From the NCBI GenBank assembly GCA_017964755.1, contig JAGCRI010000176.1, forward strand, positions 1 through 57,342: a DNA stretch of 57,342 nucleotides, written 5' to 3'. A program made the position numbers and the translations under genes. The notes under the pieces were generated by a model. The model was given only the letters and a program-made list of their open reading frames with translations. It was not told where the DNA came from and did no database searches. Below are positions 253-45,452 of this stretch, piece by piece (position 1 is the stretch's first letter; every line of letters begins with the position of its first letter). The DNA comes from Bacteroidales bacterium (lineage in GTDB: Bacteria; Bacteroidota; Bacteroidia; Bacteroidales; WCHB1-69).

Positions 253-3200
253 AGCATTCAGCAGCTTGTTGAAGATTCCCTGAAGAACTATGCGAAGACA
301 ACAGATCTCCCGACTGTCAACGACAATACCATCACAATTCAGAAGAACGGCGTTGATGTAGATAATTTCACTCTTAATGCTTCATCTGACAAGGCTATTA
401 ATATTACCGTCCCGACGACAGTTGCTGAACTTTCTGACGCAAATACATACCTTAAATCAGATAGCATCCAACATCTTGTTAAAGATTCTCTCGCCAACTA
501 TGCTAAAACATCTTCTTTGGCTACGGTCGCGACAACTGGCAGCTATAACGATCTGACAGACCAACCGACAATTCCGAGCACAGTCGCTGAATTGTCAGAC
601 GCTTCAAATTACGCATTAGTAGCGGGGAACAATACTTTCAGTGGAACAAACACTTTCTCAAGCACAGTTACAGTTCCGCAAGCGGTGAACACTACCACCC
701 TCGCTTACACTAATAACGAAATGCAGGCCGTGTCTTACAAGGATCTTATGTTCCTATTTGACTCAATCCAGGCCAAATTCAACCAAATGCAGAAGGTTAT
801 CGACTCTTTGTCTGTTTTGGTCAATAACTCTCGAACAGCTCCTAATATTACGAACCTTCATATAACTCCACATACAAATTCAATGGACCTGGAGGCTTCG
901 ATCGCTATTGGAAGCTCTGCAATCACAGCACGTTATTTCTACTATAGTACTGTTAACAACATGGCTACGGCAACAAGCGTAAGTAGCGCATCAAATAACA
1001 CGACTATCACAGGTCTCACCGAAAATACCACATATTATATATGGGTAGTTGCTTCTAACTCAGTAGGTACAGACACATCAGCTGTCTTCTCAGCAACAAC
1101 AACACCGGGAATGCCTTCTATAAGTAACTTCCTCCTCGCATCAACTGACAACGGTCGTGGTATTATTGTTACAGCTGATGTGAATTTGCAAGGTGCGAGT
1201 TCGGCTACACTTAATATTAAATACGTTGAGACAGGAGAGACGGATACCCTTACATATTCTTCAACAATAAATTCTTCTATAAATGAGACAATTTCTTCCC
1301 TTAATATAGCTACGGACTACACTGTTATCATAACGGTGGACAATGGTGCCGATGTTCCCGCAACGCAATCCGGAACTGTAACAACATACGGGCTGCCTAC
1401 TGTCGCTTCCACAACAGCTGCGAGTAGCATAACATACACTACAGCTGTCAGCGGCGGTAATGTCACTGCAAGCGGCGGAGCTTCTGTAATAAGGCGCGGT
1501 GTATGTTGGGTTGCCAGCCCTGCAATTCCTACCATTGCAAATGACACGACAATTGACGGTTCGGGAACAGGTATCTTTACAAGTATTCTCAAAGACCTGA
1601 CTGCTTCAACAACATATAATGTGAGAGCATACGCTACAACACCTGTCGGCACGGCATACGGTCCTGTTCAAACTTGTACGACTATTGTGGGCACGCTTCC
1701 GTCAATCACATTGAATACTACATATACAGCCGCCTATTCTTATAATGCAATTGCTTGCGATGCTGAAGTAACCTCGGCCGGCTCTGAACCAATTATAGAG
1801 ACCGGTTTCTGCTATAGCTCCACTAATTCCACACCGAGAATCTCAGATAATGTTTGGGTTAACTCAAGCACATCATTAGGAAACATTTATGATACTATTA
1901 GAGGTCTAACGACTAACACAACCTATTATGTATGCGCATACGCTACCAGTGACATTGGTACGGCATACAGTGCTGCAAAATCCATTACATTGTCGTTTGC
2001 TTGCGGCACCAGCACAATTACGGATTATGACAATAACGCTTACAATACTGTAGCTATAGGGAAGCAATGCTGGTTTAAAGAAAATCTCCGCTCGACTCAT
2101 TATCCTAGCGGTGATCCAATAACAGCAGCATCCAGTTTCTCTGCGACTTCTCCTTCAATAGGTTATTATTACCATGTCGCTAACAATAGTGCTAATGACG
2201 CTACCCGCGGACTGATTTACAATTGGTCGGCTGTTATGCATGGCAGTGCCTCTTCTGACGCCATGCCAAGCGGTGTACAAGGCATCTGTCCTGAAGGTTG
2301 GCATGTTCCGAGTCACGCTGAACTCACCTCCCTCTTAGATTATGTTAACAGCATAGATGAATACAAATGTAACTTAACAGATGGGTATATAGCAAAGGCA
2401 TTGGCTTCAACCCAATATTTTGAATCAACATCTACAGTTGTTTGTACTGCAGGCAATGATCGTGAAAGTAACAATAGCACAGGTTTCTCAATGGTGCCAG
2501 TAGGTATGGAAGGCGGTAACTCCAGAAGTAATAAGGATGCCACAATATGGTCTTCTACATTAAAAAGCATTGATACTGCCTACTTCTTAAGAGTTGACTA
2601 CGCGCAACCTAAAGTTAATTGGGTTGACATAGGTTCAAAACCAGCAGACCATAAGAAGCATGCTTTTGCCGTCCGTTGTGTCCTTAACGACACTATTGCA
2701 CTTCCTACACCTGATGTCAGAACTGCAGCTGTAAGCAATATTACCACAACCACAGCCTTAGCTGGTGGCAGAATTGCCGCCAATGCCATTTATGTAACTG
2801 AGAGTGGTATTTGCTACAGTACCTCAAATACGACACCCACAATCTCCGATACAAAAGTAGTTATCCCTATTTCAGATCCGGACTCCAATACTTTCACGAG
2901 CACTATTACAAGCCTCGGAGCAGGACAAACCTATTATTTGCGTGCTTACGCAATCAGCATTACCGGGACATTTTATGGAGAGGCCGTGAGTTTCACCACC
3001 GTAGCACCTTTTGTATGTGAGACAAGTACAGTTTCAGATTATGACAATAATGTGTATAACACAGTACAAATTGACGGACAGTGCTGGTTGAAAGAAAACC
3101 TGAGAACCACACATTACTCTGACGGTACCGCAATCCCATTGGGAAGCGGATATTCTGAAACTGCCAATTATCTCCATGTGGCAGGAGATGGTTCGAATGA

Positions 3201-3675
3201 TGCAACGTATGGTCTGCTCTATAATCATAAGGCTGTAATGAATGGAGCAGCCAGCATAAATGCTGTGCCGAGCGGAGTTCAGGGAGTTTGTCCGACAGGA
3301 TGGCACGTTCCAAGCCGGGCTGAATATGAAAATCTTCTTACATATTTATATAGCGATGCTGAATACCAATGTGGCGGCAATAGTAGCGATGTAGCCAAAT
3401 CATTAGCTTCCACCACAACATGGAACTCGAGTACCACTTCTTGTGCTATTGGCTACGATACATCAACAAATAACGCGACAGGATTCAGTGCAGTGGCTGC
3501 AGGCGGTTGGTTCGGCAATTATTTTAATAAAGGTATTTATGCTGAATTACAAACTACTACCTCAGTTGACACTTCCGTTAGTTTATTCAGATTATACAAA
3601 GATTCTCCCAACTGTTATATGTTCGGCAGTCGCGACATAGGCGACTATTTCCCTGTCCGTTGCCTTCGCGATTAA
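1..3675 (+). CDS. 5'-truncated giant surface/adhesin-like protein with tail-fibre-like 28-aa repeats, Fn3/Ig-like repeats and two FISUMP (Fibrobacter succinogenes major paralogous, TIGR02145-type) lectin-like domains
   Basis: Frame 1 has no stop from nt 1 up to the GTG at 226 used by the ORF track, so the gene enters from upstream. SDSIQHL... repeats are followed by TVAELSD and ATVATTGSYNDLTDQP tail-fibre-like motifs. Several roughly 90-aa repeats end in TTYY(V/L)RAYA..G.(A/F)YG. There are two FISUMP signatures: ITDYDNNAYNTVAIGKQCWFKENL...GLIYNW...GICPEGWHVPSHAEL...VRC (about nt 1998-2690) and VSDYDNNVYNTVQIDGQCWLKENL...GLLYNH...GVCPTGWHVPSRAEY...VRCLRD (about nt 3013-3672). Confidence 0.8.
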   Translation, partial: SIQHLAHDTANKVRTELATAIENFITSDSIQHLAHDTANKVRTELATAIENFLSSDSIQHLAHDTANVLRKEFKTVIKDFIKSDSIQQLVEDSLKNYAKTTDLPTVNDNTITIQKNGVDVDNFTLNASSDKAINITVPTTVAELSDANTYLKSDSIQHLVKDSLANYAKTSSLATVATTGSYNDLTDQPTIPSTVAELSDASNYALVAGNNTFSGTNTFSSTVTVPQAVNTTTLAYTNNEMQAVSYKDLMFLFDSIQAKFNQMQKVIDSLSVLVNNSRTAPNITNLHITPHTNSMDLEASIAIGSSAITARYFYYSTVNNMATATSVSSASNNTTITGLTENTTYYIWVVASNSVGTDTSAVFSATTTPGMPSISNFLLASTDNGRGIIVTADVNLQGASSATLNIKYVETGETDTLTYSSTINSSINETISSLNIATDYTVIITVDNGADVPATQSGTVTTYGLPTVASTTAASSITYTTAVSGGNVTASGGASVIRRGVCWVASPAIPTIANDTTIDGSGTGIFTSILKDLTASTTYNVRAYATTPVGTAYGPVQTCTTIVGTLPSITLNTTYTAAYSYNAIACDAEVTSAGSEPIIETGFCYSSTNSTPRISDNVWVNSSTSLGNIYDTIRGLTTNTTYYVCAYATSDIGTAYSAAKSITLSFACGTSTITDYDNNAYNTVAIGKQCWFKENLRSTHYPSGDPITAASSFSATSPSIGYYYHVANNSANDATRGLIYNWSAVMHGSASSDAMPSGVQGICPEGWHVPSHAELTSLLDYVNSIDEYKCNLTDGYIAKALASTQYFESTSTVVCTAGNDRESNNSTGFSMVPVGMEGGNSRSNKDATIWSSTLKSIDTAYFLRVDYAQPKVNWVDIGSKPADHKKHAFAVRCVLNDTIALPTPDVRTAAVSNITTTTALAGGRIAANAIYVTESGICYSTSNTTPTISDTKVVIPISDPDSNTFTSTITSLGAGQTYYLRAYAISITGTFYGEAVSFTTVAPFVCETSTVSDYDNNVYNTVQIDGQCWLKENLRTTHYSDGTAIPLGSGYSETANYLHVAGDGSNDATYGLLYNHKAVMNGAASINAVPSGVQGVCPTGWHVPSRAEYENLLTYLYSDAEYQCGGNSSDVAKSLASTTTWNSSTTSCAIGYDTSTNNATGFSAVAAGGWFGNYFNKGIYAELQTTTSVDTSVSLFRLYKDSPNCYMFGSRDIGDYFPVRCLRD

Positions 3676-3688
3676 ATTGAATTTTTTT

Positions 3689-3696
3689 TATCTTTG
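3689..3696 (+). promoter_or_regulatory. Bacteroidetes sigma-ABfr-type -7 box (TAnnTTTG) for the glycan operon
   Basis: TATCTTTG lies 20 nt upstream of the ATG at 3716. The ORF-track TTG start at 3677 lies upstream of this box, so a transcript from this promoter would not include it. Confidence 0.45.
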
Positions 3697-3715
3697 CCGT
3701 TTAAAGATAAAAAAA

Positions 3716-5005
3716 ATGAAAGTTCCTTTTTCTCCGCCAAGGATTGATGAAAAAACGATAGAAGCGGTTACCGAAGTTCTGCGTTCAGGCTGGATTACCA
3801 CTGGCCCGAGGACCAAAGAATTTGAACGCCGTTTGGCTGAATATTGCAATGTTTCCAATGTCCTGTGTGTGAATTCCGCTTCCGCCGGACTTGAGCTTGT
3901 GCTGCACTGGTTCGGGGTCGGGCCGGGCGATGAGGTGATTCTCCCCGCATACACATACACAGCCACAGCCAACGTGGTACTTCACTGCGGCGCGAAACCC
4001 GTTATGGTTGACGTGAAAGACGATTTTAATATTGATGTCGCACTGATTGAGAAAGCCATAACCCCACGCACCAAAGTCATCATGCCAGTCGATATTGCCG
4101 GTTGGCCGTGCAACTATTACAAAATTAACGATTTGGTGCGGCGGAGCGACATTGTGCAAATGTTCTCGCCCACAACAGAAGAGCAGCGCAAACTCAGCAG
4201 AATACTCGTCCTTTCAGACGCCGCCCACTCATTAGGGGCAATGTACGCTAACGCACGCACCGGCAGTCTGACTGACATCACCGTCTTCTCTTTCCACGCC
4301 GTCAAAAACCTTACTACTGCTGAGGGTGGCGCAATCTGTTTCAACCTTCAAGAGCCTTTTGATAATGGTGAAATATATAAAACTTTGTGTGTTAAATCAT
4401 TACATGGACAAACAAAAGACGCTTTCTCCAAAATGAAGGTCGGGGCTTGGCGTTACGATGTGGTTGAAGCCGGATACAAATGCAATATGACTGACATTCT
4501 CGCAGCCATAGGTTTGGTGGAGTTGGAGCGGTATGACCGTTATTTTGATAGTATTACAGATAGTGATGATTGCAAAATTTCCAATACTGGCAACTCTTCC
4601 TCAATGCTCGAAACGCGTTATAAGATTTTCAGCATTTATTCGGAAGAGTTTTCAAAGCACGACTGCTTTATTATTCCGCCGTATGGTAGCTATAGTGATG
4701 GAATACATAGTTCATATCACGCTTATCTGCTCCGTATCAAAGGCGCCACGGAGGAGCAGCGCGATGAGATTATCCAAAAGATTTCTGAAAACGATGTCGC
4801 TGTAAATGTGCATTTCCAGCCGTTGCCACTGCTCACATGTTATAAGAATCTCGGTTACAAAATCGAAGATTATCCTGTCGCTTACAAAAACTATTCATGC
4901 GAAATCAGTCTGCCGGTTTTTTATGATATGACATACGGCCAGATCGAACTGGTTATAAAAAGTGTTATTGATGCAACTTATTCAGTATTAAGACATAATT
5001 CATAA
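3716..5005 (+). CDS. DegT/DnrJ/EryC1/StrS-family PLP-dependent sugar aminotransferase
   Basis: The N-terminus VPFSPPRIDEKTIEAVTEVLRSGWITTGPRTKEFERRLAEYC, together with SFHAVKNLTTAEGG (Schiff-base Lys context), is typical of the family. The start was moved to the ATG at 3716, downstream of the promoter box. Confidence 0.85.
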   Translation: MKVPFSPPRIDEKTIEAVTEVLRSGWITTGPRTKEFERRLAEYCNVSNVLCVNSASAGLELVLHWFGVGPGDEVILPAYTYTATANVVLHCGAKPVMVDVKDDFNIDVALIEKAITPRTKVIMPVDIAGWPCNYYKINDLVRRSDIVQMFSPTTEEQRKLSRILVLSDAAHSLGAMYANARTGSLTDITVFSFHAVKNLTTAEGGAICFNLQEPFDNGEIYKTLCVKSLHGQTKDAFSKMKVGAWRYDVVEAGYKCNMTDILAAIGLVELERYDRYFDSITDSDDCKISNTGNSSSMLETRYKIFSIYSEEFSKHDCFIIPPYGSYSDGIHSSYHAYLLRIKGATEEQRDEIIQKISENDVAVNVHFQPLPLLTCYKNLGYKIEDYPVAYKNYSCEISLPVFYDMTYGQIELVIKSVIDATYSVLRHNS

Positions 5006-16029: not shown

Positions 16030-18510
16030 ATGAAAAAAACATTATTACTTAGCATGCTGATGGCATTGGGATTCTTCTTTGCCAACGCACAGACTCTGCC
16101 AATCTATGATGATTGCTCGAGTTACCCGCTCTACACAATTAACCCTGCAGGGTACTGGAAATTCGTTGATGTTGATGCTGATTCAACCTATGGATTCCAA
16201 GGAATAACTTTCCCGAACAATTTCTGTCCGATGGCATTCATCTCTTTCGATTTTGAGGATGCAGGGACTTCCTACACTGTAGAATCTCCTTCCGGAAATC
16301 CTGTTTTGGCTTGTTTTGCCTCTACCCTTAAACACAGTACCGGGAATAATGACTGGCTCATAAGCCCACAACTTCCAAACAACGGCAACAAATACATCTT
16401 CTCTTTCTGGGCAGCAACCTATACTGACCAATATGGAGAAGAGAGATTTAATGTGTTCTATTCTACAACAGGTGATAATCCTTCTGATTTTACTATGGCA
16501 AACTGTCTGAATCTTCCATATACTGATGTTCCTGAAGATTGGACAAAATACACATACGAAGTCCCCGCTAACGCGAAATATGTTGCAATAAACTGTGTGT
16601 CAAAGGACAGGTTCATCTTTTTGGTAGATGACATCACCCTCAAAGAACTTTTCCACAAAAACCTGGAAGCATACGCACTCGGTGTTCCGGATTATTCATG
16701 CGAGTTGACCGACCAAGAGAAAATCCAAATTGGAATTGTAAACGAAGGTGTTGACACTGTTTATGAGTTTGACGTAGCTTATCAGATAAGCAATCATGCT
16801 CCAGTTGTTGAGCACGTGACAACAACTCTTCTCCCTGATTCATCTTACATCCACACATTCGCAACTTTGGCTGACCTCACATTCGCAATGGATGCTGATT
16901 CAATCCGCGGCTGGGTTGTTTTGCCAAATGATGAGTTCCTCGGAAACGACACAACAGCATGGTATGGCACTGGTGTTCCCGCGCCCGCAACTGTTACCTA
17001 CACCAACGACTTTGAAACTGAAGACCAATTGAAAGGCTGGTCAATTGTTGACGTTGACGAAGACGTTTACGGCTGGCACTACACAACAGAAGATAATGGC
17101 AACAAACTTTTCTTCTGCCAAACATTCAACTCTACTCCTGTCAATGACTGGCTCTTCTCCTCATGCTTCGATCTTCAGGCAGGCGATTACACAATCGAAT
17201 TCCTTTACAAAGCTTATTCATCTATCTACACTGAAAAATTGAATGTTTATTATGGCACAACTCCTGATCCGGCTTCAATGCAGCTTATCGGCAGTGTTTC
17301 ATTCTCAAACGAGAACTTCAAGACCTTCTCACAGATATTCAATATTCCTGCTGACGGAATCTATTACATTGGCTTCAAAGGCGCAAGCGCTGCTTCACAA
17401 GGCGACATCTACCTTGACAATGTCCTTCTTAAACTTGCTGAGAAAAACGACATCGCTGTTGTTGCACACGGCGTTCCCGCTCTCAGCTGCGAACTGACAG
17501 GCGCTGAAACAATCAAAATGACCGTCAAAAACACTGGCGTAAGCGAAATCACAGCTTTCAATGCTTACTATCAGGTTGGCAACGGAACTCCTGTTGTTGA
17601 GTCTGTTACTGAAACTATCGCTTCAGGTGCAGAATATGAATACACATTCACCACATCGGCTGACCTCACTGTTCCCGCAATCGCAACTGTAACCCTCTGG
17701 GCTGAACTCGCAAACGACAACAATGCTGACAACGATACTATTACAGCTGAAACCGGCTTGGTCGCTTCTGTCACATCATACCCATACGAAAACAAATTCA
17801 CTACAGAAGCTGACATCCTCAACTGGAGCACACTCAATGGTCTGAACAATGAATGCTATTGGAAAATAAACACTAGCGGATATTGGTATCACATTGGCAA
17901 TCTTTATTATGCATCAATGCCAGAATACTCATACTATACAGGTGGTGAAGACTTCCTCGTATCTTCATGCTTGGATTTCCAAGCTGCGAAACAATACGAG
18001 TTATCATTCGATTATGCTGTTTATGACCCTGATCTCACCTCAAGCATGAAAATCTACATCGGCAAGAAAGTCAGTGACAACCCCAATGACTATACTCTCC
18101 TTGACGAATTGACAATGTTCAATAACCAAGAATGGGCAACATACGATAATATATTCACAGTTCCCGAAGATGGCACATACTACATTGCTTTCTACGCTTA
18201 CAACAATCAGAGATCAATGTTCCTTGATAACTTCAAAATCAGCGACAATGTCGGTATTAACGACAATGAAAACGCTTCATCATTTGTCTCCCTCTATCCT
18301 AACCCCACAAAAGACATGGTTAATCTGAGAAGCAACGACAACATGTCAATGGTTAGCATTTATGACGTATTCGGCAAAAACATCGCCAATTATGAAGTTT
18401 CAGGCAACGAAGCGCAAATCAATGTTGCAAACCTCGCTTCTGGCTTGTACGTTGCTAAAATAGCTACAGAAAACGGTGTTGTTGTCAAGAAATTCAACGT
18501 TCAGAAATAA
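16030..18510 (+). CDS. T9SS-secreted modular surface protein with three cleaved-adhesin/choice-of-anchor-J-like domains, two Ig-like domains and a C-terminal sorting domain
   Basis: It has a signal peptide. The module GNNDWLISP...F(S/L)FW/Y...E(R/K)(F/L)NV(F/Y)Y(S/G)TT...(DD/DN)(I/V)(T/L)L occurs three times. The block LSCELTxxEKI/TIK..V.N.G occurs twice. The C-terminus LYPNPTKDMVNL...GLYVAKIATENGVVVKKFNVQK matches the Por/T9SS CTD (TIGR04183 type). Confidence 0.8.
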   Translation: MKKTLLLSMLMALGFFFANAQTLPIYDDCSSYPLYTINPAGYWKFVDVDADSTYGFQGITFPNNFCPMAFISFDFEDAGTSYTVESPSGNPVLACFASTLKHSTGNNDWLISPQLPNNGNKYIFSFWAATYTDQYGEERFNVFYSTTGDNPSDFTMANCLNLPYTDVPEDWTKYTYEVPANAKYVAINCVSKDRFIFLVDDITLKELFHKNLEAYALGVPDYSCELTDQEKIQIGIVNEGVDTVYEFDVAYQISNHAPVVEHVTTTLLPDSSYIHTFATLADLTFAMDADSIRGWVVLPNDEFLGNDTTAWYGTGVPAPATVTYTNDFETEDQLKGWSIVDVDEDVYGWHYTTEDNGNKLFFCQTFNSTPVNDWLFSSCFDLQAGDYTIEFLYKAYSSIYTEKLNVYYGTTPDPASMQLIGSVSFSNENFKTFSQIFNIPADGIYYIGFKGASAASQGDIYLDNVLLKLAEKNDIAVVAHGVPALSCELTGAETIKMTVKNTGVSEITAFNAYYQVGNGTPVVESVTETIASGAEYEYTFTTSADLTVPAIATVTLWAELANDNNADNDTITAETGLVASVTSYPYENKFTTEADILNWSTLNGLNNECYWKINTSGYWYHIGNLYYASMPEYSYYTGGEDFLVSSCLDFQAAKQYELSFDYAVYDPDLTSSMKIYIGKKVSDNPNDYTLLDELTMFNNQEWATYDNIFTVPEDGTYYIAFYAYNNQRSMFLDNFKISDNVGINDNENASSFVSLYPNPTKDMVNLRSNDNMSMVSIYDVFGKNIANYEVSGNEAQINVANLASGLYVAKIATENGVVVKKFNVQK

Positions 18511-18533
18511 TGACATTCATTTTCCCAATAATG

Positions 18534-18561
18534 GAAAAGGCCTCCTTGGTGAGGCCTTTTT
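18534..18561 (+). terminator. Rho-independent terminator of the T9SS cargo gene
   Basis: The perfect 10-bp stem AAAAGGCCTC/GAGGCCTTTT has a 6-nt loop (CTTGGT) and a T-run. It lies 24 nt after the stop codon. Confidence 0.8.
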
Positions 18562-18696
18562 TATTTGAAAACCAGACATTTAATAAATGTATATAGTATT
18601 TTGCGTAAATAATCACAAATATTAGTTATAGGAAAATGAAAAATACCGATAATTAGCTATTTGCCCGATACAAGCAACTCTCTATCTTTGCAACGT

Positions 18697-18797
18697 AAAA
18701 ACAAATAATGCCACTGCCATAATCCATATACAGGCTTTTATTGTTTTAAGGATAGTAATAATTGCGAAAAAGCGGCTTGCACAAGGCCGTTTTTTTG
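18697..18797 (+). ncRNA. Candidate roughly 100-nt small RNA (promoter box plus intrinsic terminator, no ORF)
   Basis: A TATCTTTG -7 box lies at 18683-18690. The hairpin CGGCTT-GCACA-AGGCCG at 18773-18789 is followed by T7 (18790-18796). Only a 4-codon ORF lies in between. The 5' end is inferred. Confidence 0.3.
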
Positions 18798-18855
18798 TAT
18801 TAAGAAAAATTTATAATTTTAAACCCAGAAATTGAAGAGGTGTTTTAATTTTGTA

Positions 18856-18863
18856 TATATTTG
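18856..18863 (+). promoter_or_regulatory. TAnnTTTG -7 box for the two-gene Panacea operon
   Basis: TATATTTG lies 48 nt upstream of the ATG at 18912 and downstream of the 18773-18797 terminator. Confidence 0.45.
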
Positions 18864-18911
18864 CAAGCAATACTTTTAAAAGAAAAACCTCATACAAAGT
18901 GATGTTTATTT

Positions 18912-19448
18912 ATGGAAGGTGTTTTTAATTTCAGTAAGGCTATAAATGCGGTGCTATATATTATAAAGCACATTAAAAGAGCTGATTTTCATAAGATTTT
19001 CAAAATACTATACTTCTCTGACAGAGACATGTTAGCACAAACAGGCATGATGATAACGGGTGATACATATATAGCAATGAATGATGGTCCTGTCCCATCG
19101 AACATTTACGACATATTCAAATCAGTAAGAGGAGATGGATTTTTTAAGAATATGAGCGATCTGTCATCATTTATCGGTGTTGAGAACTGGGATATTGTTG
19201 TGGCTAAAAAGGATCCTGATATGGGGCAATTTTCAAAAATGGACATAAAAATAATTGACAATGCCATACAGAAATATGGAAACTTGTCGTGGGATGAAAT
19301 CCGAGAGAAATCGCACGATTACGCGTGGCGCAGCACAACACTTAACCGCCCAATGTCCGTAAAAGATATGCTTATTGAAAGTGGGAGCGATGACGGTTTT
19401 ATTCAATATGTTAAAGAAGAAATGGAGTTGGAAAGGCTTGTAAGATAA
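18912..19448 (+). CDS. Panacea (DUF4065) domain protein, SocA/PanA-type antitoxin
   Basis: KIFKILYFSDRDMLAQTGMMITGDTYIAMNDGPVPSNIYDIFK and the later IIDNAIQKYGNLSWDEIREKSHDYAW match the DUF4065 pattern (KLxKLLYF(A/S)D ... G.P(I/L)TG..Y.A...GPVP..(I/L)Y ... LS..EL...SH....W). Confidence 0.8.
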   Translation: MEGVFNFSKAINAVLYIIKHIKRADFHKIFKILYFSDRDMLAQTGMMITGDTYIAMNDGPVPSNIYDIFKSVRGDGFFKNMSDLSSFIGVENWDIVVAKKDPDMGQFSKMDIKIIDNAIQKYGNLSWDEIREKSHDYAWRSTTLNRPMSVKDMLIESGSDDGFIQYVKEEMELERLVR

Positions 19449-19454
19449 CCGAAA

Positions 19455-19904
19455 ATGAGTGTTGATATTCCACAAAATACGCTTTCTTTAACATTTAAAT
19501 CCACCATTAGGATAGGTGATGTTTTTCTTAAATGCTTTGATGGCATCAGTCATCCGAAATTTTTTATTATAACAGGCATTTCACAAGATAGGGTAACTGT
19601 ATGCAGCGTATTCATCAATTCTAAGATTCATCCATCTTTGTTTAATAAACCAATTCTTCTCAACGCTCAGATTCTTCTAAAAAAAGATTCAAACAGTTTT
19701 CTTTCTCATGATTCCTATGCCAACTGTTCCCATACTTTCATATTGGATTTAACACTACTTGCTGAAGACATTGCTAATAAAAAATGTAAAGTTATTGGGA
19801 CTTTGAACTATGATGATATTACATCTGTAAGGCGTGCCATTATTGATACAGGATTGTTAAGTCATGATACTGAAAAAACATTTTTCAATGATTTACTTCA
19901 TTGA
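19455..19904 (+). CDS. Uncharacterised 149-aa protein, putative cognate toxin of the Panacea antitoxin
   Basis: It starts 6 nt after the antitoxin stop on the same strand, with no separate promoter box. It has no signal peptide or TM helix and no motif I can assign confidently. The GDVF...KFFIITG...SVFINSK...SHDSYANCSHTFILDLTLL...KVIGTL..DDITSVRRAI spacing is loosely MazF/PemK-like. Confidence 0.55.
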   Translation: MSVDIPQNTLSLTFKSTIRIGDVFLKCFDGISHPKFFIITGISQDRVTVCSVFINSKIHPSLFNKPILLNAQILLKKDSNSFLSHDSYANCSHTFILDLTLLAEDIANKKCKVIGTLNYDDITSVRRAIIDTGLLSHDTEKTFFNDLLH

Positions 19905-19932
19905 CAGAAGTAACCTTTAATTTCAAAAACCG

Positions 19933-20598
19933 ATGAAACTATACATAGTCCCCACTCCGATTGGCAATCTTGAAGACATCACGCTGCGCGCTCTCCGCGT
20001 GCTGAAAGAAGCTGATTTTGTGCTTTGCGAAGATACAAGGACCACAAAAAACTTACTGAGGCACTACGAAATGGACAAGCGCTGCTACGCATACCATATT
20101 TTCAACGAACACCAGCAGGTGGCTAATTTGGTGAATATGATAAAAATTGCGGGCAGCGTTGCGCTCACAAGCGATGCCGGCACACCTGGCATTTCCGACC
20201 CCGGATTCCTCCTGATACGTGAATGCCTTGCTGCTGACATTAAGGTGGAATGTCTCCCCGGAGCCACCGCCCTCATCCCTGCATTAGTCAATTCAGGACT
20301 GCCAGCCGACAAGTTCTATTTTCACGGATTCCTGCCTCATAAAAAAGGGAAGGAGACTACCTTGAAAATGCTTGCCGAACGCGATGAGACCGTCATTTTC
20401 TACGAGTCACCGTTCCGTCTTGTGAAGACCCTCGAAATGATGCTGCACATTTTCGGCGAAGGGCGGCAAATCTCTGTGGCACGCGAACTCACAAAGATAC
20501 ACGAAGAGAATTTCCGCGGCACCGTTGCCGAAGCCGTCTCGCATTTTTCTGAAAAAGAGGTTAAAGGGGAAATCGTGGTTGTGGTGAAAGGGAAATAA
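19933..20598 (+). CDS. rsmI: 16S rRNA (cytidine1402-2'-O)-methyltransferase
   Basis: MKLYIVPTPIGNLEDITLRALRVLKEADFVLCEDTRTTKNLL and SDAGTPGISDPG are canonical RsmI motifs. Confidence 0.9.
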   Translation: MKLYIVPTPIGNLEDITLRALRVLKEADFVLCEDTRTTKNLLRHYEMDKRCYAYHIFNEHQQVANLVNMIKIAGSVALTSDAGTPGISDPGFLLIRECLAADIKVECLPGATALIPALVNSGLPADKFYFHGFLPHKKGKETTLKMLAERDETVIFYESPFRLVKTLEMMLHIFGEGRQISVARELTKIHEENFRGTVAEAVSHFSEKEVKGEIVVVVKGK

Positions 20599-21944: not shown

Positions 21945-24227
21945 ATGTCTGATAAGCCGTTAGCAGAAAAACTACGTCCAAAGAAGGTGAGTGATTACAT
22001 CGGGCAGCAGCACCTTATGGGTGAAGGCGCAATACTGCGCACGGCTATAGAGAGCGACAGGCTCCATTCGATGATTCTCTGGGGGCCGCCTGGCGTTGGG
22101 AAGACCACCCTCGCACTGCTCATCGCAGAGACTACAGGCGCAAATTTCTATATGTTGAGTGCGATAAGTTCGGGTGTGAAAGAAATCCGCGAGGTGATAG
22201 ATAGTGCGCGCAACTCTCTCGGTAAGTCAATTCTCTTCATTGACGAAATCCACCGTTTCAGCAAGGCGCAGCAGGATTCTCTGCTTGGTGCGGTTGAGCA
22301 GGGTGTTGTGACGCTAATCGGTGCCACCACAGAAAATCCATCATTTGAGGTCATTTCGCCGCTGTTATCGCGTTGTCAGGTGTATATTCTTAAATCATTG
22401 GAAGAGAATGATTTGCAGATAATAATTAAGAATTGTGTCTCCTATCTGGAACAAGATCTTAACTGTAAAATCAAGATAGATGAAGATTCGGCACTGCTCC
22501 GTATCTCCGGCGGTGATGCAAGAAAACTTATAAACGCTGTTGAACTTGTGGTTACAACGCTCCGCAATAATTCTGATAAAATTCTCATTAACAATGAGAT
22601 AGTATTGAAGATAATTCAGAAGAACTTGGCGGTTTACGATAAAAAAGGTGAGAACCACTACGATATTATTTCGGCGTTTATCAAGTCTGTGCGCGGCAGT
22701 GACCCGAATGCGGCGGTCTATTGGCTTGCGCGTATGCTTGAAGCAGGGGAGGATCCGCTTTTCATCGCGCGCCGCCTCATTATTCTTGCCTCGGAAGACG
22801 TAGGCAACGCCAACCCCAACGCGCTTCTTTTGGCTAACAGCTGTTTTCAGGCGGTGCACCAAATCGGGATGCCGGAAGCGAGAATCGTTCTCTCGCAAAC
22901 CACCACATATCTCGCCTCTTCACCTAAAAGCAATGCCGCATATATGGCCGTGGAAAACGCTTTCGGCATGATAAAATCCACAGGCGACCTGCCCGTGCCG
23001 TTACATCTCCGCAACGCCCCCACGCGGCTGATGAAAGACATCGGCTACGCGAAAGACTACAAATATTCCCACGATTTTGAAAACCATTTTGTTGACGAAG
23101 AGTTTCTGCCGGAAAGCATTTCGGGTGCCAAATTCTACGAGCCGCAGGACAATCCGAGAGAGAACGAGTTGCGCAAATATTTGAAAAAATGCTGGAAAGA
23201 CAAATACAGATATGTCATTCTTCTGGTTTCCATTCTGACTTTTTTCACCAATATTTTTGCTCAAGACATACACTACTCCCAATTTTCAACCTCAGCGCAA
23301 AACCTGAACCCCGCATTGACGGGTGTTGTCAACGGTGTTTTCCGTGCTGGATTGAACCAGCGCACGCAATGGCTTTCTGTCACGAAGCCTTTTCTCACAT
23401 TTTCGGCGGCGATAGATGCGCCCGTCTATAAGAACAACCGCCGGCGCGAACTTGTCGGCTTGGGATTTCTGCTCAACGTTGACCGCGCCGGCGATTCACA
23501 CTATACCTCATGCCAACCGCTTCTTTCAGCCTCTTACGTCAAAAGTCTCGACCATAAAAATAATCATAAAATCGGCTTCGGAGCATACGCCGCACTCATA
23601 AACCGCTCCATCAATTTCTCAAGGCTTTCGTTTGACGAGCAATGGGTGAACGGATATTATAGTCAAGACAATCCTATTACAGAAAATCTTGAAAAACAGA
23701 AAATTACATTTTTCGATTGGGGCATTGGAGTAAACTATAGTTTCGTTCCGTCCGATAAATTCTCGCTAATAACCGGTGTTGGCATTTCGCACTTGAACAC
23801 ACCAAAACAGACTTACTATAAGGACGAAAACTCAGTGCTTCCGATAAAAAGTACAGCATACATAATGACGCAAGTGCTTGTGCATAAAGATGTTTACTTG
23901 TGTCCGATGGTCTATGCTGCTTTTCAGGGGAATTTCACGGAAATAAATTTCGGCTGTATTGCCGAATACCAGTATCATAAGAACGCCTACACCAACAACT
24001 GGGCATTTGGTGGCGGCATTTTCTGTCGTTGGGCAGATGCGGTGATTGCGACCGCCACATTGCGCTGGCAAAATGTGAAATTGGGGATAAGCTATGACTT
24101 TAACTACTCATCGTTAGTGCGGGCTTCGCGGGTGCGTGGCGGGTTGGAAATCTCTCTGCTTTACGTATTGAAACGCGCCACCGTCAAATCTGTCGGCAAC
24201 GAACCGTGTCCGTTTCTGCTTATGTAA
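21945..24227 (+). CDS. rarA: Continuous 760-codon ORF with an N-terminal replication-associated recombination protein A (RarA/MgsA, roughly the first 420 codons) in frame with a PorP/SprF-family protein
   Basis: RarA features are the Walker A motif [24 protein letters not shown], the [10 protein letters not shown] sensor region, [13 protein letters not shown] and [13 protein letters not shown]. No stop codon follows before the PorP/SprF-like part. Confidence 0.75.
23181..24227 (+). CDS. PorP/SprF-family type IX secretion system membrane protein, with a possible independent TTG start nested in frame in the rarA ORF
   Basis: From the TTG at 23181 the product begins [29 protein letters not shown], which has a basic n-region, a hydrophobic core and an AQ/D cleavage context. 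It continues [19 protein letters not shown]...[10 protein letters not shown], the PorP/SprF signature. No in-frame ATG is available. Confidence 0.6.
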   Translation: MKKCWKDKYRYVILLVSILTFFTNIFAQDIHYSQFSTSAQNLNPALTGVVNGVFRAGLNQRTQWLSVTKPFLTFSAAIDAPVYKNNRRRELVGLGFLLNVDRAGDSHYTSCQPLLSASYVKSLDHKNNHKIGFGAYAALINRSINFSRLSFDEQWVNGYYSQDNPITENLEKQKITFFDWGIGVNYSFVPSDKFSLITGVGISHLNTPKQTYYKDENSVLPIKSTAYIMTQVLVHKDVYLCPMVYAAFQGNFTEINFGCIAEYQYHKNAYTNNWAFGGGIFCRWADAVIATATLRWQNVKLGISYDFNYSSLVRASRVRGGLEISLLYVLKRATVKSVGNEPCPFLLM

Positions 24228-41228: not shown

Positions 41229-42569
41229 TTATTTTTTATTATGTTTTTTCTCAAAATCTTTTTTAAAGAATCCTGCCCACGTTGCGCCAAGTGCAAACCA
41301 CGGCTCATGATTGTATTGTGAGCGGAGAAGTCTTATCCCTCCTTCAGCCTTGATAGTTATCTCCTTGATTGGGCGATAGTTAACACCACCGCTTATGCAA
41401 TGGCGTTCAGTCCACGGATAAGGTGTGGCATCGGCGACAGGAATGTACGAGTCGTAATATTCATAACGGGCGAAAAGGTATAATTTCTGGCTTGCGACAC
41501 GATCTTTTTTAGAGAGCGAGAAGAAATCGAAGCCAGCCTCAATTCCAGCCGACCACGCTGCCTTGCCGACCAAAGTGTGAGGATATGGCGACTGTGAACT
41601 GTTGACTTGCGAAGCGTTGTAAGTGGAAATCAGCCCTGCATCGGAGAGCCAGCCGTAGAGTCCGCTGCCGCGCATGAGGAAACCTTTTGCCTGATATTTG
41701 AAATCCAATGAAGCGATTGCCACCGTTCCCTTAACTTTTGCATAATTTGTTGATTTGCCGTCAGTTACAAGATCATTACGGAAACAGTTTCCTACGAAGC
41801 CGCTGATTCCGATGCGGAAGCCTTTAAGGCTGCTGTTATCAACACGCGCCGCGACTGCCAACTTGTTCGCGACTCTGAACTCGTATGGTGAGGCGGAGCC
41901 GTCGTGCACCCAACCGGAAGCGTTAAACATATTGGAGTTCAGCGAAGGAATCACCATCAGGTCATAACGCCAGCCTTTGACCTTGCCCCACAGCTCAATT
42001 CCCGTCTCATGCCATGTGCATGGAATTATAGTATTCTCACCCTCAGGACGATAGACGCCGAAAAACTCACTCGGCAGGTGAGCGTTATTTGTCGCCCCGA
42101 CTGGCACCACAAGGTGACCGAGCCTTATGTTGATTTTTGAATCCAAAAAAGACTTCTGAATCCAGAACTGCTCAAGCGCAACCTCGCCGCCACGCTCAAT
42201 TTCCTTTTCAAACTCACCGGTCTCCTCCGCCTCAATCTCCACCGCCGCCTCAGCACCGCCGTGTTCAAACTCAATTTCAGAATTGAACGACCACCCCTTG
42301 CCGAAATCATAACCGAGCATAAAGACTGCATGCGGCAAATCCACCCGCCCGTGCCCCTTCGAGTTTGCATAGTTTTCGGCATGAGAATAGCGGAACATAT
42401 TGTCGCTGTAGAAATTATACTTATAGACAGCCTCGCCATATCCGCCCACCGTGAGCCGCGAAGCACGCACTCTCACGCTATCTTTCGCAAGAGTATCTTT
42501 AGTTGACTGTGAATCAACATATTGAATAAAAAGAAAAGTGCAAATTATCAGCAAAAATATCCTTTTCAT
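41229..42569 (-). CDS. Outer-membrane beta-barrel (porin-like) protein
   Basis: It has the signal peptide MKRIFLLIICTFLFIQYVDSQ, alternating-strand composition and a C-terminal aromatic region (GATWAGFF). The start was trimmed to 42569. Confidence 0.6.
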   Translation of the reverse strand: MKRIFLLIICTFLFIQYVDSQSTKDTLAKDSVRVRASRLTVGGYGEAVYKYNFYSDNMFRYSHAENYANSKGHGRVDLPHAVFMLGYDFGKGWSFNSEIEFEHGGAEAAVEIEAEETGEFEKEIERGGEVALEQFWIQKSFLDSKINIRLGHLVVPVGATNNAHLPSEFFGVYRPEGENTIIPCTWHETGIELWGKVKGWRYDLMVIPSLNSNMFNASGWVHDGSASPYEFRVANKLAVAARVDNSSLKGFRIGISGFVGNCFRNDLVTDGKSTNYAKVKGTVAIASLDFKYQAKGFLMRGSGLYGWLSDAGLISTYNASQVNSSQSPYPHTLVGKAAWSAGIEAGFDFFSLSKKDRVASQKLYLFARYEYYDSYIPVADATPYPWTERHCISGGVNYRPIKEITIKAEGGIRLLRSQYNHEPWFALGATWAGFFKKDFEKKHNKK

Positions 42570-42589
42570 CTCACCTGATTTTGAATTTG

Positions 42590-42597
42590 CAAATGTA
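42590..42597 (-). promoter_or_regulatory. TAnnTTTG -7 box for the barrel-imelysin-DUF1111-ccsBA operon
   Basis: The reverse complement reads TACATTTG, 21 nt upstream of the ATG at 42569. Confidence 0.45.
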
Positions 42598-42966
42598 AGC
42601 CTGCACAAACACGCCGGACATACCTATTTTTAATGAATATTTGCAGATTAAGTAATCAAAAGTAGTGATGAGAATATCGTCTTATACTGAAAAAAGTTTG
42701 CACTTTATGGAGCTCTAACCAGAAGTGAAGTAAGAGAAAAAAATAATTACAGAAAAATACAAGCGGGAAATGTAAAATAATTTTCATCTTTGTATAACTG
42801 CAATGATAAAAATATTATATTTGGCAATGCAAAAAATTCACGCCATGCACCACACCATGAACCGGTTCTCAAAAATGTTATTATTTTTCTACGCATTTTA
42901 TGATTCTCAATACGGCATTAAAGGCAATAATGATTGCTTATTATTCTGAAACCCTTCACATTGCGT

Positions 42967-44523
42967 ATGACTAAAACGAAATCCCTTATTGCAGCGATAT
43001 TGTTCTTATCATTTTTGCGGCTTGATGCGCAAAGGTTTGTAACCGTTACAGATACAATATCGTTAAACACTTACGGCTATTTCAATCGGTTTTCCCGGAT
43101 ATGGCTTAAAAACAACATCGCCAAATATCGAAATTACTATTTTTGTGCTTTTTATGAGACACATTTATACGACTACAATTTTGAAAAATATCACATATTA
43201 GCTTTTTCCGAAGACGGAACTGATGTGCGAAAAGTGGAATTACCCGAACGTGCCTGTAGTCATTTTGATCATTCTGCTATTTTTACGCGTAACGACACTC
43301 TTTTTCTAAAAGGTTATTATTCTTTGTGCCCGCATTACTTTTTTGATTTTGACAATTGGAAATGGATTCCTTTGGATTTCTTTTCTAACGTTATATATGA
43401 AGATGAAATATATAGTGTTATCCCTTACGAACGGGAATGGGGACCATACACTTGTTTCATTAATAAAGAACCGACATGGAGGCATGAAATACGGGATGGC
43501 ATTCAACACACTGAACTGACAAATCGGCTGTATCTATATTGTAACACAATCAAAAGACTCATAAGAAAAGGAAATTCCTATTTTATAGTGCATCATTATG
43601 GAGCAGATAGTTTGAATCTGTCAAAAAGCCCTGGTAATCTCATTTATGTTAAATCAGACCTCTCAGATTTAAGTGGAAGATTGGATTGTTCAAATAATTA
43701 CAAGAAGAATTTCATACCTATTATTCGTTTTTCCACGAAAAAAAATGCAAAAGGATGGAAAAAACATGAATATGACACTACTTTCAACAACGCCTTTCTT
43801 TTTGACAACCAAATATTTTATGTAACCTCCACCCCACTATCGTCATTAATAACAAAGATTGAAGACGGCAAATTGAAAACTGTCGTTGACTTCGGCGGAC
43901 AATTCAATTTTTACATATTAAAAAACACCGGAGTCAATTTCGCAAACAATAAATGCATCACTGCATTTGAACAAAATGCCAATACATACGGTTTTATGGA
44001 TATTGCTGACAGCCTGATTCATATCCGCTATTTTATTCACGATCAGGATTCTATCAAATTTATACATTCCGACAGCATTCAGCTGCTTCTGCAATTTCTT
44101 TTTGCAAACCTGCCTGACATAAATTTTCATACACTTGACAGTTTTGCAAACCATATTGGAGCAATGTGCAATAATGAGATTTTACTGCTACGCAACAAAT
44201 ATTTTCCAGATAAATACCAAGATGACGCAAAATACGGCAAAATCAGTTATTATGCAAAAATCAATGACGAGCAAATTTTGTCGTGCGAATACTGCATTAA
44301 CAAGTCGGATTCAACTGTCAAGGCATTGTTTTGGAAATGGCTGGAACCCAACATGACCAATATATACGATAATAAGTTCAGCACGACTAAAAAACATAAA
44401 ATCATCAGCATAATAAACAAAATCACAGGCACGCCCCCAAAACGTGAAAAAGACTGTAACGTATGGGTTTATAATAACCTGACTTGTGAATTGTACGATA
44501 ACGGAAGAATGGTGATATATTAG
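42967..44523 (+). CDS. Secreted hypothetical protein (518 aa), visibly AT-rich orphan gene
   Basis: The signal peptide is MTKTKSLIAAILFLSFLRLDAQ. The protein is rich in Asn, Lys, Tyr, Phe and Ile, and no family motif was recognised. Confidence 0.6.
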   Translation: MTKTKSLIAAILFLSFLRLDAQRFVTVTDTISLNTYGYFNRFSRIWLKNNIAKYRNYYFCAFYETHLYDYNFEKYHILAFSEDGTDVRKVELPERACSHFDHSAIFTRNDTLFLKGYYSLCPHYFFDFDNWKWIPLDFFSNVIYEDEIYSVIPYEREWGPYTCFINKEPTWRHEIRDGIQHTELTNRLYLYCNTIKRLIRKGNSYFIVHHYGADSLNLSKSPGNLIYVKSDLSDLSGRLDCSNNYKKNFIPIIRFSTKKNAKGWKKHEYDTTFNNAFLFDNQIFYVTSTPLSSLITKIEDGKLKTVVDFGGQFNFYILKNTGVNFANNKCITAFEQNANTYGFMDIADSLIHIRYFIHDQDSIKFIHSDSIQLLLQFLFANLPDINFHTLDSFANHIGAMCNNEILLLRNKYFPDKYQDDAKYGKISYYAKINDEQILSCEYCINKSDSTVKALFWKWLEPNMTNIYDNKFSTTKKHKIISIINKITGTPPKREKDCNVWVYNNLTCELYDNGRMVIY

Positions 44524-44541
44524 AAAGCCGTCAAGAAAGAA

Positions 44542-44549
44542 TAATTTTG
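44542..44549 (+). promoter_or_regulatory. TAnnTTTG -7 box for the rnf operon
   Basis: TAATTTTG lies 88 nt upstream of the GTG at 44637. Confidence 0.35.
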
Positions 44550-44636
44550 CATAAAAAACAAAAAGTTTCAAAAAATAATTGAAAAAAAAGTGGTAATTTT
44601 ACGGCATAATTTTCATAACCTAACAAAGGAGGCAAA

Positions 44637-45452
44637 GTGGCTGGAAACACTATTATTTTGGCTGTAGTTATTTTGGGTGTCATAGGCTTGGTGGCTGCGA
44701 TACTCTTGTTTTTTATTTCAAAGGCATTCAAAGTCGAGGAGAACCCGCTGATAGATGATGTGGCTGCCCAACTGCCCGGTGCGAACTGCGGCGGCTGCGG
44801 CTTCGCAGGATGCCGCGGGCTTGCGGAGGCGATTGTGAAAGCCGGCAACCTCGAAGGTCTGCGCTGCCCCGCAGGCGGCAACAGCACTATGGAGAATATC
44901 GCCAAAATCATGGGCTTGGAAGCTGTCGCTGCCGAACCTATGGTCGCGGTGGTGCGCTGTAACGGCAGCTGCGAGAACGCACCGGCAAAAGTCAACTACG
45001 ACTCAATGCCAAGCTGCTTTTTCGCCAATTCGCTCTACGCCGGAGAAAGCGCATGCCCGTACGGCTGCCTCGGCTGCGGCGACTGTGTTGGCTCGTGCCA
45101 GTTCAACGCCCTCCACATCGACCCCGTCACAAAACTGCCGGTCGTTGATGTGAACGCGTGCGTGGGATGCGGCGCCTGCGTCAAAAACTGCCCGCGCCAT
45201 ATAATCGAATTGAGGTTTAAAGGCACGGAAGGACGCGTGTATGTGACCTGCATGAACAAGGAGAAAGGCCCCGTGGCTAAGAAGAACTGCTCCGCCGCCT
45301 GTATCGGCTGCGGCAAATGCGCTAAAAACTGTCCCGCCGAAGCAATCACAGTGCAAGACAGCCTCGCATATATCGACTTCCGCAAATGCACACTGTGCCA
45401 AACCTGCGTTTCGGGCTGTCCGACAGGCGCAATCAAATTCAGCAATTTATAA
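44637..45452 (+). CDS. rnfB: Rnf electron transport complex subunit B
   Basis: It has an N-terminal TM helix, the CGGCGFAGC cluster motif and several CxxCxxCxxxCP ferredoxin motifs. Confidence 0.85.
   Translation: MAGNTIILAVVILGVIGLVAAILLFFISKAFKVEENPLIDDVAAQLPGANCGGCGFAGCRGLAEAIVKAGNLEGLRCPAGGNSTMENIAKIMGLEAVAAEPMVAVVRCNGSCENAPAKVNYDSMPSCFFANSLYAGESACPYGCLGCGDCVGSCQFNALHIDPVTKLPVVDVNACVGCGACVKNCPRHIIELRFKGTEGRVYVTCMNKEKGPVAKKNCSAACIGCGKCAKNCPAEAITVQDSLAYIDFRKCTLCQTCVSGCPTGAIKFSNL

Follow-up and report, generated by a model that had tools for sequence, protein, structure and literature searches.

A Bacteroidales Panacea antitoxin gene followed by a divergent toxin gene of predicted MazF/PemK fold, related to a described group of PanAT pairs

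Toxins associated with the Panacea antitoxin (PanA) were catalogued by Kurata et al. (2022, PNAS 119:e2102212119; PMC8832971), who sorted the PanA-associated toxins (PanTs) of 20,209 genomes into 88 clusters. Here we describe a panA–panT pair on a 57,342-nt contig of a Bacteroidales bacterium of the WCHB1-69 lineage (JAGCRI010000176.1, GenBank assembly GCA_017964755.1), a stretch that we call the window, and compare it with the closest of these clusters, T5. In that paper and its Dataset S1, T5 is a large, Bacteroidetes-rich cluster with members in Bacteroides, Prevotella, Parabacteroides, Geofilum, Chryseobacterium, and others; HHpred matched it to EndoA/MazF structures at 99.4–99.5% and to CcdB at 98.3–98.6%. 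One of its listed pairs is from Cellulophaga fucicola DSM 24786, with PanA WP_072304238.1 and toxin WP_072304239.1 in antitoxin–toxin order with a gap of -4, and another member is Chryseobacterium bovis (WP_076782182.1/WP_076782181.1). The MazF-like PanTs of Pseudomonas moraviensis (T6) and Bifidobacterium ruminantium (T25) are neutralised by their PanAs, form complexes with them, and are specific translation inhibitors (PMC8832971). Standalone Panacea domains neutralise through direct contact, and a sensory role for Panacea has been proposed (Ernits et al. 2023; PMC10440598).

The pair in the window consists of two genes on the same strand, separated by 6 nt:

18912..19448, + strand: panA, 178 aa, standalone Panacea (DUF4065) antitoxin, Pfam PF13274
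19455..19904, + strand: panT, 149 aa, toxin of predicted MazF/PemK fold on a divergent branch related to Kurata T5, from AlphaFold2, Foldseek, and BLASTP

Both open reading frames (ORFs) lie where a first-pass annotation of this DNA, made from its letters, had placed them, and the Panacea/DUF4065 signature that it had read in the upstream gene is borne out by a match of PanA residues 29–139 to Pfam SocA_Panacea (PF13274) at E=2.1e-23 and 83.8 bits (cut-off 25.7). PanA is without an N-terminal helix-turn-helix, PAD1, or ZBD domain and ends in an acidic C-terminal tail of ~39 aa. It matches PHROG 1281, and the identical protein is found on 20 contigs. Against the NCBIfam SocA equivalog model NF047745 it scores 19.6 bits, with a cut-off of 190. 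Neither PanA nor PanT matches a defence-system model of PADLOC-DB v2 at E≤1.

The same annotation had called the 149-aa protein unassignable, with a loose resemblance to MazF/PemK; the first of these statements did not hold, and the second proved right at the level of the fold. PanT has no match in Pfam (none at E≤1), PADLOC, or PHROG, and an NCBIfam Mbov_0400 ICE match was dropped as sub-threshold (16.6 bits vs a cut-off of 55). A word-indexed search with PanT returned 33 cluster representatives of 126–152 aa (most ~147 aa) at 39–95% identity, none of which carries a Pfam domain and the few named ones of which are labelled 'hypothetical protein'. An exhaustive profile search extends the family to 1,075 representatives (50% identity) at E≤1e-3, of which 303 are at E≤1e-10. 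The conserved core of the family alignment is G21-D22-V23, H33, K35, I54-N55-S56, F82-L83, S87, C91, C111, G115, and D121. When searched against the PDB as a single sequence or as a narrow profile (phmmer, hmmsearch), PanT gave only noise (LDH, GIT1). An AlphaFold2 model built on the family alignment (pLDDT 87.4, pTM 0.81) has a beta-barrel-like core with added helices at the N terminus (7–17) and the C terminus (137–147), and in a Foldseek search of the PDB with this model, ranks 1–46 are all MazF/EndoA/PemK chains, with probabilities of 0.99–1.00 and target-normalised TM scores of 0.61–0.71. The best match is Staphylococcus aureus MazF (4mzp_A, E=9.8e-6); rank 46 is followed by the type III toxin CptN, and CcdB is not among the 50 best matches listed. 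From the model, we conclude that the predicted fold of PanT is the MazF/PemK SH3-like barrel.

The family also leads directly to T5. An exact-sequence look-up identified one of our loci (L038) as the C. fucicola genome named above, its toxin-family ORF being WP_072304239.1 and its upstream ORF WP_072304238.1; a second (L045), from Prevotellaceae bacterium Marseille-P2826 (today Ihuprevotella massiliensis), was matched by species to another T5 entry of Dataset S1. A profile of the sub-branch to which the window protein belongs scores 77.3 bits on WP_072304239.1 and 60.8 bits on the L045 toxin, and by BLASTP the window PanT is 32% identical to WP_072304239.1 over 90 aa (E=9e-14). UniRef names WP_072304239.1 a 'PemK-like, MazF-like toxin', and at NCBI the representative of its 90% cluster is a 'PemK/MazF family toxin'. 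When 138 family members were compared with Pfam PemK_toxin (PF02452), 6 matched at E≤0.01 and one alone passed the cut-off (23.2 bits vs 23.1); T5-like members score 20–23 bits, and the window sub-branch gives no signal. On sequence grounds, we place the window PanT on a divergent branch of Bacteroidales and Flavobacteriales sequences that is related to T5.

To place the conserved residues of PanT on canonical MazF, we compared the family with a set of canonical sequences. We take the canonical catalytic residues to be an Arg (R25 in Bacillus subtilis, R29 in Escherichia coli) and a Thr (T48 and T52, respectively). In the canonical set the Arg, the Thr, a Glu, a Gln, and the GSEQxGxRP loop are invariant. 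As in B. subtilis and S. aureus MazF, beta1 of PanT carries a GDV(F/Y) motif, and an (E/H)DS motif on the central strand is common to both families, with FLxHDS of the PanT family in register with ERDS of MazF in three independent alignments. The C-terminal G-x-[LI]-x3-[DE][LI] of the PanT family aligns with MazF IGxLxxE. Judged by the register of sequence and predicted secondary structure, Lys35 of PanT, at the start of beta2, would stand where canonical MazF has its catalytic Arg, which would be a conservative replacement, and Ile54-Asn55, at the end of beta3, would stand where canonical MazF has its catalytic Thr, with Ile-Asn-Ser in place of P-x-Thr. Lys35 is the sole residue invariant across the 138 superfamily members, and Asn55 is near-invariant.

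The genomic context of the family shows that the two genes belong together. With each GTDB species represented by a single genome, a scan yielded 57 loci, mostly in Bacteroidota (Bacteroidales, Prevotella, Flavobacterium, Cellulophaga, Cytophagales, and Sphingobacteriales) with a few outside it (Beggiatoa-like bacteria, Anaerolineales, Idiomarina, and Agathobacter), and the family hidden Markov model (HMM) matches an ORF at every locus. The first-pass annotation had suggested checking whether homologues recur beside DUF4065 genes, and they do: PF13274 is found in 57 of 58 same-strand upstream ORFs (that of the window and 57 from other loci), with the two genes between -43 and +42 nt apart. The PanT homologue of Flavobacterium sp. 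LHD-85 and those of two metagenomic lineages lie directly 3′ of a SocA_Panacea gene among wholly different flanking genes, and the window's own flanking genes, sought at 64 loci, are shared by none. The homologues whose context was examined adjoin PanA, except for a split, pseudogene-like copy (L034) and two weak matches. Over 57 distinct pairs, PanA and PanT identities co-vary (Spearman 0.69), PanA always being the more conserved. Such conserved adjacency and co-divergence mark the pair as a mobile unit of two genes that evolve together. The pair also has the features by which Kurata et al. (2022) recognised PanATs, namely a Panacea domain above the gathering threshold, a gap of at most 100 nt, occurrence in at least two species, no part in a longer conserved operon, and reciprocity.

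Two further observations concern individual loci of the family. At Flavobacterium loci only, and not in the window, panT is followed, at +2 or -4 nt, by an ORF of 87–89 aa without a Pfam match, possibly a third, accessory gene:

L001 6444-6713, L016 4423-4686, L018 4414-4683: 87–89-aa ORF 3′ of panT

The split copy, L034, is in a Butyricimonas metagenome-assembled genome (MAG) at 2814–4387, where the toxin homologue is in two ORFs (3992–4165 and 4205–4387) and the upstream gene is Abi_2 (Abi-like), not PanA; its appearance is that of a decayed copy in defence-type surroundings.

The surroundings of the pair in the window are as follows:

18530..18567, + strand: intrinsic-terminator hairpin of the upstream cargo gene of the type IX secretion system (T9SS), -19.5 kcal/mol, z=-5.46, followed by a U-run
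18846..18863, + strand: two Bacteroidetes-type -7 boxes in overlapping register, presumed panAT promoter, from a TAnnTTTG scan
19933..20598, + strand: rsmI-type methyltransferase gene, Pfam TP_methylase, given as context and outside the module

The two boxes are TATATTTG at 18856–18863, where the first-pass annotation had seen a promoter box belonging to the pair, and TAATTTTG at 18846–18853; they sit 49–59 nt 5′ of the panA ATG. TAnnTTTG occurs 72 times in the window vs 50.9 expected, a count reached in 0 of 100 shuffles, and none was found on the + strand from 18864 to the rsmI start at 19933, which agrees with the earlier statement that the 149-aa ORF, 6 nt downstream of panA, has no promoter box of its own. 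In two of the nearest relatives (L009/L010), a TATTTTTG box stands 5′ of panA at a comparable position, though the DNA around it is unrelated. We therefore presume that the boxes at 18846–18863 serve as the panAT promoter. The rsmI gene starts 28 nt 3′ of panT, and no terminator-like hairpin was found 3′ of panT: the one stem there is weak (-6.7 kcal/mol) and lacks a U-run. Because there is neither a terminator after panT nor a TAnnTTTG box before rsmI, transcription from the panAT promoter may continue into rsmI, which would then be co-transcribed with the pair.

Between the cargo-gene terminator and the presumed promoter lies another element. A third TAnnTTTG box, TATCTTTG, at 18683–18690 (+), is ~75 nt 5′ of a strong hairpin at 18763–18799 (+; -20.8 kcal/mol, z=-5.2) with A- and U-runs on its flanks, so that 18683–18799 looks like an independent transcript of ~100 nt or a bidirectional terminator. 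It contains no ORF and matches nothing in Rfam above threshold; strains L070/L072/L073 conserve only what lies from position 18738 on. An Rfam scan of 18400–20000 gave no match at gathering score.

The pair lies in an AT-rich islet, as the first-pass annotation had proposed together with its flanks. GC content over 18566–19932 is 0.326 vs a window mean of 0.443 (sd 0.035), which makes this the lowest-GC 1.37-kb stretch of the 57-kb window, with 0.04% of sliding windows equally low; the terminator hairpin at 18530..18567 forms its left edge. The 5′ neighbour encodes an 826-aa Por_Secre_tail (T9SS) protein and the 3′ neighbour is the TP_methylase/RsmI-type gene, an order of cargo–PanA–PanT–RsmI that is kept on all same-species contigs (several independent metagenomes and one Bacteroidales MAG). 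Look-ups of the exact RsmI and PanA proteins returned same-species contigs only, and all of these carry the insertion. Beside 80 RsmI relatives (47–86% identity), no PanA or PanT was found within 4 kb; the other window neighbours are also not conserved there, so that this absence fits a lineage-specific acquisition without amounting to a clean empty site. In the nearest relatives, L008–L010 (PanA 77–79% and PanT 57–62% identity), similarity starts at the panA ATG and stops at the panT stop codon, and alignment of the flanks revealed no common flanking sequence, no repeats, and no att-like ends. Searches of phage and plasmid collections by tblastn matched no PanAT copies.

The upstream cargo gene (16030–18510, +) is itself hypervariable within the species. 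Among loci L070–L074 its 3′ kilobase is 100%, 94%, or just 76–79% identical between strains, with RsmI and NlpC/P60 on the other side at 98.9% or above, and in some strains the first 227 nt of the cargo–panA intergenic region are replaced. A second low-GC stretch, at 42300–44800 (about 0.33), ranks next in the window. A 529-aa ORF (42934–44523, +) lies inside it and a 459-aa ORF (41229–42608, -) overlaps it, neither with a Pfam match, and the stretch may likewise be an accessory insertion. In a 760-aa ORF at 21945–24227 (+), a RarA/MgsA-type AAA ATPase (RuvB_N, AAA, MgsA_C) is joined to a PorP_SprF (T9SS) domain at the C terminus; this 760-aa product is called on all same-species contigs and is either an unusual fusion or two neighbouring genes read as one.

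We consider it probable that the locus as a whole is a chromosomal type II toxin–antitoxin (TA) module of the PanAT kind, in which a MazF-fold PanT is held inactive by PanA. A single promoter at 18846–18863 would drive panA and then panT. PanT would most likely be a sequence-specific endoribonuclease (RNase) that arrests translation, and PanA, with its Panacea domain and short acidic C-terminal tail, would bind PanT directly and keep it inactive. The pair would form a small, self-contained unit that was acquired horizontally and became fixed in this Bacteroidales species between the T9SS cargo gene and rsmI, where it may serve in stabilisation or in phage defence. Besides the features of the pair itself, the validated MazF-like PanTs of T6 and T25 and the neutralisation by direct contact seen with standalone Panacea domains speak for this explanation.

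Several results weigh against this explanation. The catalytic Arg and Thr of MazF and its GSEQxGxRP loop are not conserved in the PanT family, and the window protein is recognised by no Pfam or NCBIfam model. When the PDB was searched with the broad family profile (hmmsearch), MazF/EndoA came out on top yet at a non-significant E=0.25, and hhalign of the family profiles against the canonical MazFs, which was used as a lead for residue mapping only, gave a non-significant probability of <5% (4%) with a consistent C-terminal register. No clean empty site for the PanAT insertion was found, and the Leu at PanT position 74, described below, may attenuate the window's toxin allele, although the counts involved are small. 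Among described systems, the toxicity of the C. bovis T5 toxin in E. coli counts in favour of the explanation, but its PanA is toxic too, hence no rescue was demonstrable, and the T8 'MazF' PanT of F. xanthum is not toxic in E. coli (PMC8832971). Neutralisation by the cognate PanA is not on record for any T5 pair, nor is a mechanism for any T5 toxin.

Because the canonical catalytic residues are replaced, the module could be the same and its MazF-fold toxin nevertheless not cleave RNA, acting instead on another target, for example as a gyrase poison like CcdB or as a binder of an essential protein. The absent Arg, Thr, and loop, the invariance of K35 alone in 138 members, and the short beta1–beta2 loop speak for such a toxin, as do the listing of CcdB by HHpred for T5 and the lack of an established mechanism for any T5 toxin. 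We nevertheless regard it as unlikely: the 46 best structural matches are all MazF-type RNases, with CcdB outside the 50 best listed; the FLxHDS and ERDS motifs keep their register in all three alignments; the change from Arg to Lys35 would be a conservative one; and the MazF-like PanTs that have been tested, T6 and T25, specifically inhibit translation. A related but broader idea is that the whole sub-branch has a MazF-fold toxin of non-canonical chemistry or target, with a bare Panacea interface unlike that of MazE, and possibly works as a phage-sensing switch in the sense of the hypothesis of Ernits et al. It is prompted by the loss of the catalytic Arg/Thr and the GSEQ gating loop and by the gain of two terminal helices and conserved His/Cys residues, and we hold it to be a doubtful prospect.

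The pair might also be a decaying or inactive remnant, with a toxin attenuated or dead and the genes kept by drift or because panA and its promoter serve rsmI. Codon 74 of panT (19674–19676) encodes Leu in the window and Pro in both sister alleles and in >90% of the family. PanT of the window differs from that of L070 by 5 nt and 4 aa (ratio of nonsynonymous to synonymous substitution rates, dN/dS, about 1.1) and from that of L071 by 15 nt and 7 aa (dN/dS 0.23), as compared with 0.06–0.08 for RsmI and NlpC in the same L071 comparison and with only synonymous changes (dN=0) in PanA within the species. The non-toxic T8 PanT and the lack of a promoter box or terminator between panT and rsmI point the same way. 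We think decay improbable, however, since every contig of the species, from several independent metagenomes, carries the two ORFs intact, the window allele keeps all other invariant residues of the family, the substitution counts (5 and 15 nt) are very small, and the dN of 0 in PanA fits ongoing selection to neutralise an active toxin. We give very little credence to a type VI arrangement like that of SocAB, in which the Panacea protein would be a ClpXP proteolytic adaptor and the toxin destroyed rather than sequestered. Panacea was first characterised in SocA and PanA has a weak match to NCBIfam SocA_antitoxin, but its score is far below the equivalog cut-off, the toxin has the predicted MazF fold and not the SocB fold, and those PanAT pairs that Kurata et al. 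tested assemble into stable complexes, as type II systems typically do.

Under the preferred type II PanAT explanation, the significance of the locus is modest: it opens no new class of system and adds a well-supported, unannotated sub-branch (33 representatives) to the PanA:MazF-like (T5) group. The proposal that this is an undescribed toxin–antitoxin module stands as far as the toxin–antitoxin-like operon is concerned and falls on 'undescribed', T5 having been catalogued in 2022. Because no Pfam, NCBIfam, PADLOC, or PHROG model recognises the window protein, current pipelines label such toxins 'hypothetical'. For neutralisation and mechanism in T5, a pair from a gut or rumen Bacteroidales lineage with natural P74/L74 alleles may be a convenient test case.

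Compared with canonical MazEF/PemIK/Kid-Kis toxins, PanT has in common the predicted SH3-like beta-barrel core with a C-terminal helix, and differs in being ~35 aa longer, with one extra helix at each end, and in having a beta1–beta2 loop of about half the canonical MazF length without the GSEQ motif. The antitoxins differ as well, Panacea in the window pair and an AbrB/RHH MazE in canonical MazEF. SocAB, a type VI TA system of Caulobacter, has an antitoxin that also carries a Panacea domain, but the window PanT is unrelated to SocB and the window PanA is not a SocA equivalog. T6 and T25 combine a Panacea antitoxin with an EndoA/PemK/MazF-like toxin as the window pair does, a likeness of description; they are other toxin clusters, and CDD/NCBI identifies T25, but not the window PanT, as PemK/MazF.

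The closest likeness is to T5. In both, a standalone Panacea gene without an N-terminal domain comes first and is followed a few nucleotides on by the gene for a homologous toxin of ~150 aa, and the window pair is chromosomal, like the T5 pairs widespread in Bacteroidetes chromosomes. The window sub-branch, which comprises Bacteroidales MAGs, Flavobacterium, Breznakibacter, and Azobacteroides, is just 22–32% identical to the T5 anchors (26–32% for the window PanT and the C. fucicola toxin, depending on the alignment), and it is set apart by its lack of a PemK_toxin signal and by its own invariant residues H33, C91, C111, and D121. Because the C. fucicola T5 pair was retrieved, T5 is annotated as EndoA/MazF, and T6 and T25 have been validated, we conclude that the architecture, toxin fold, and toxin family have already been described and that the locus is an ordinary new PanAT pair, not a new system.

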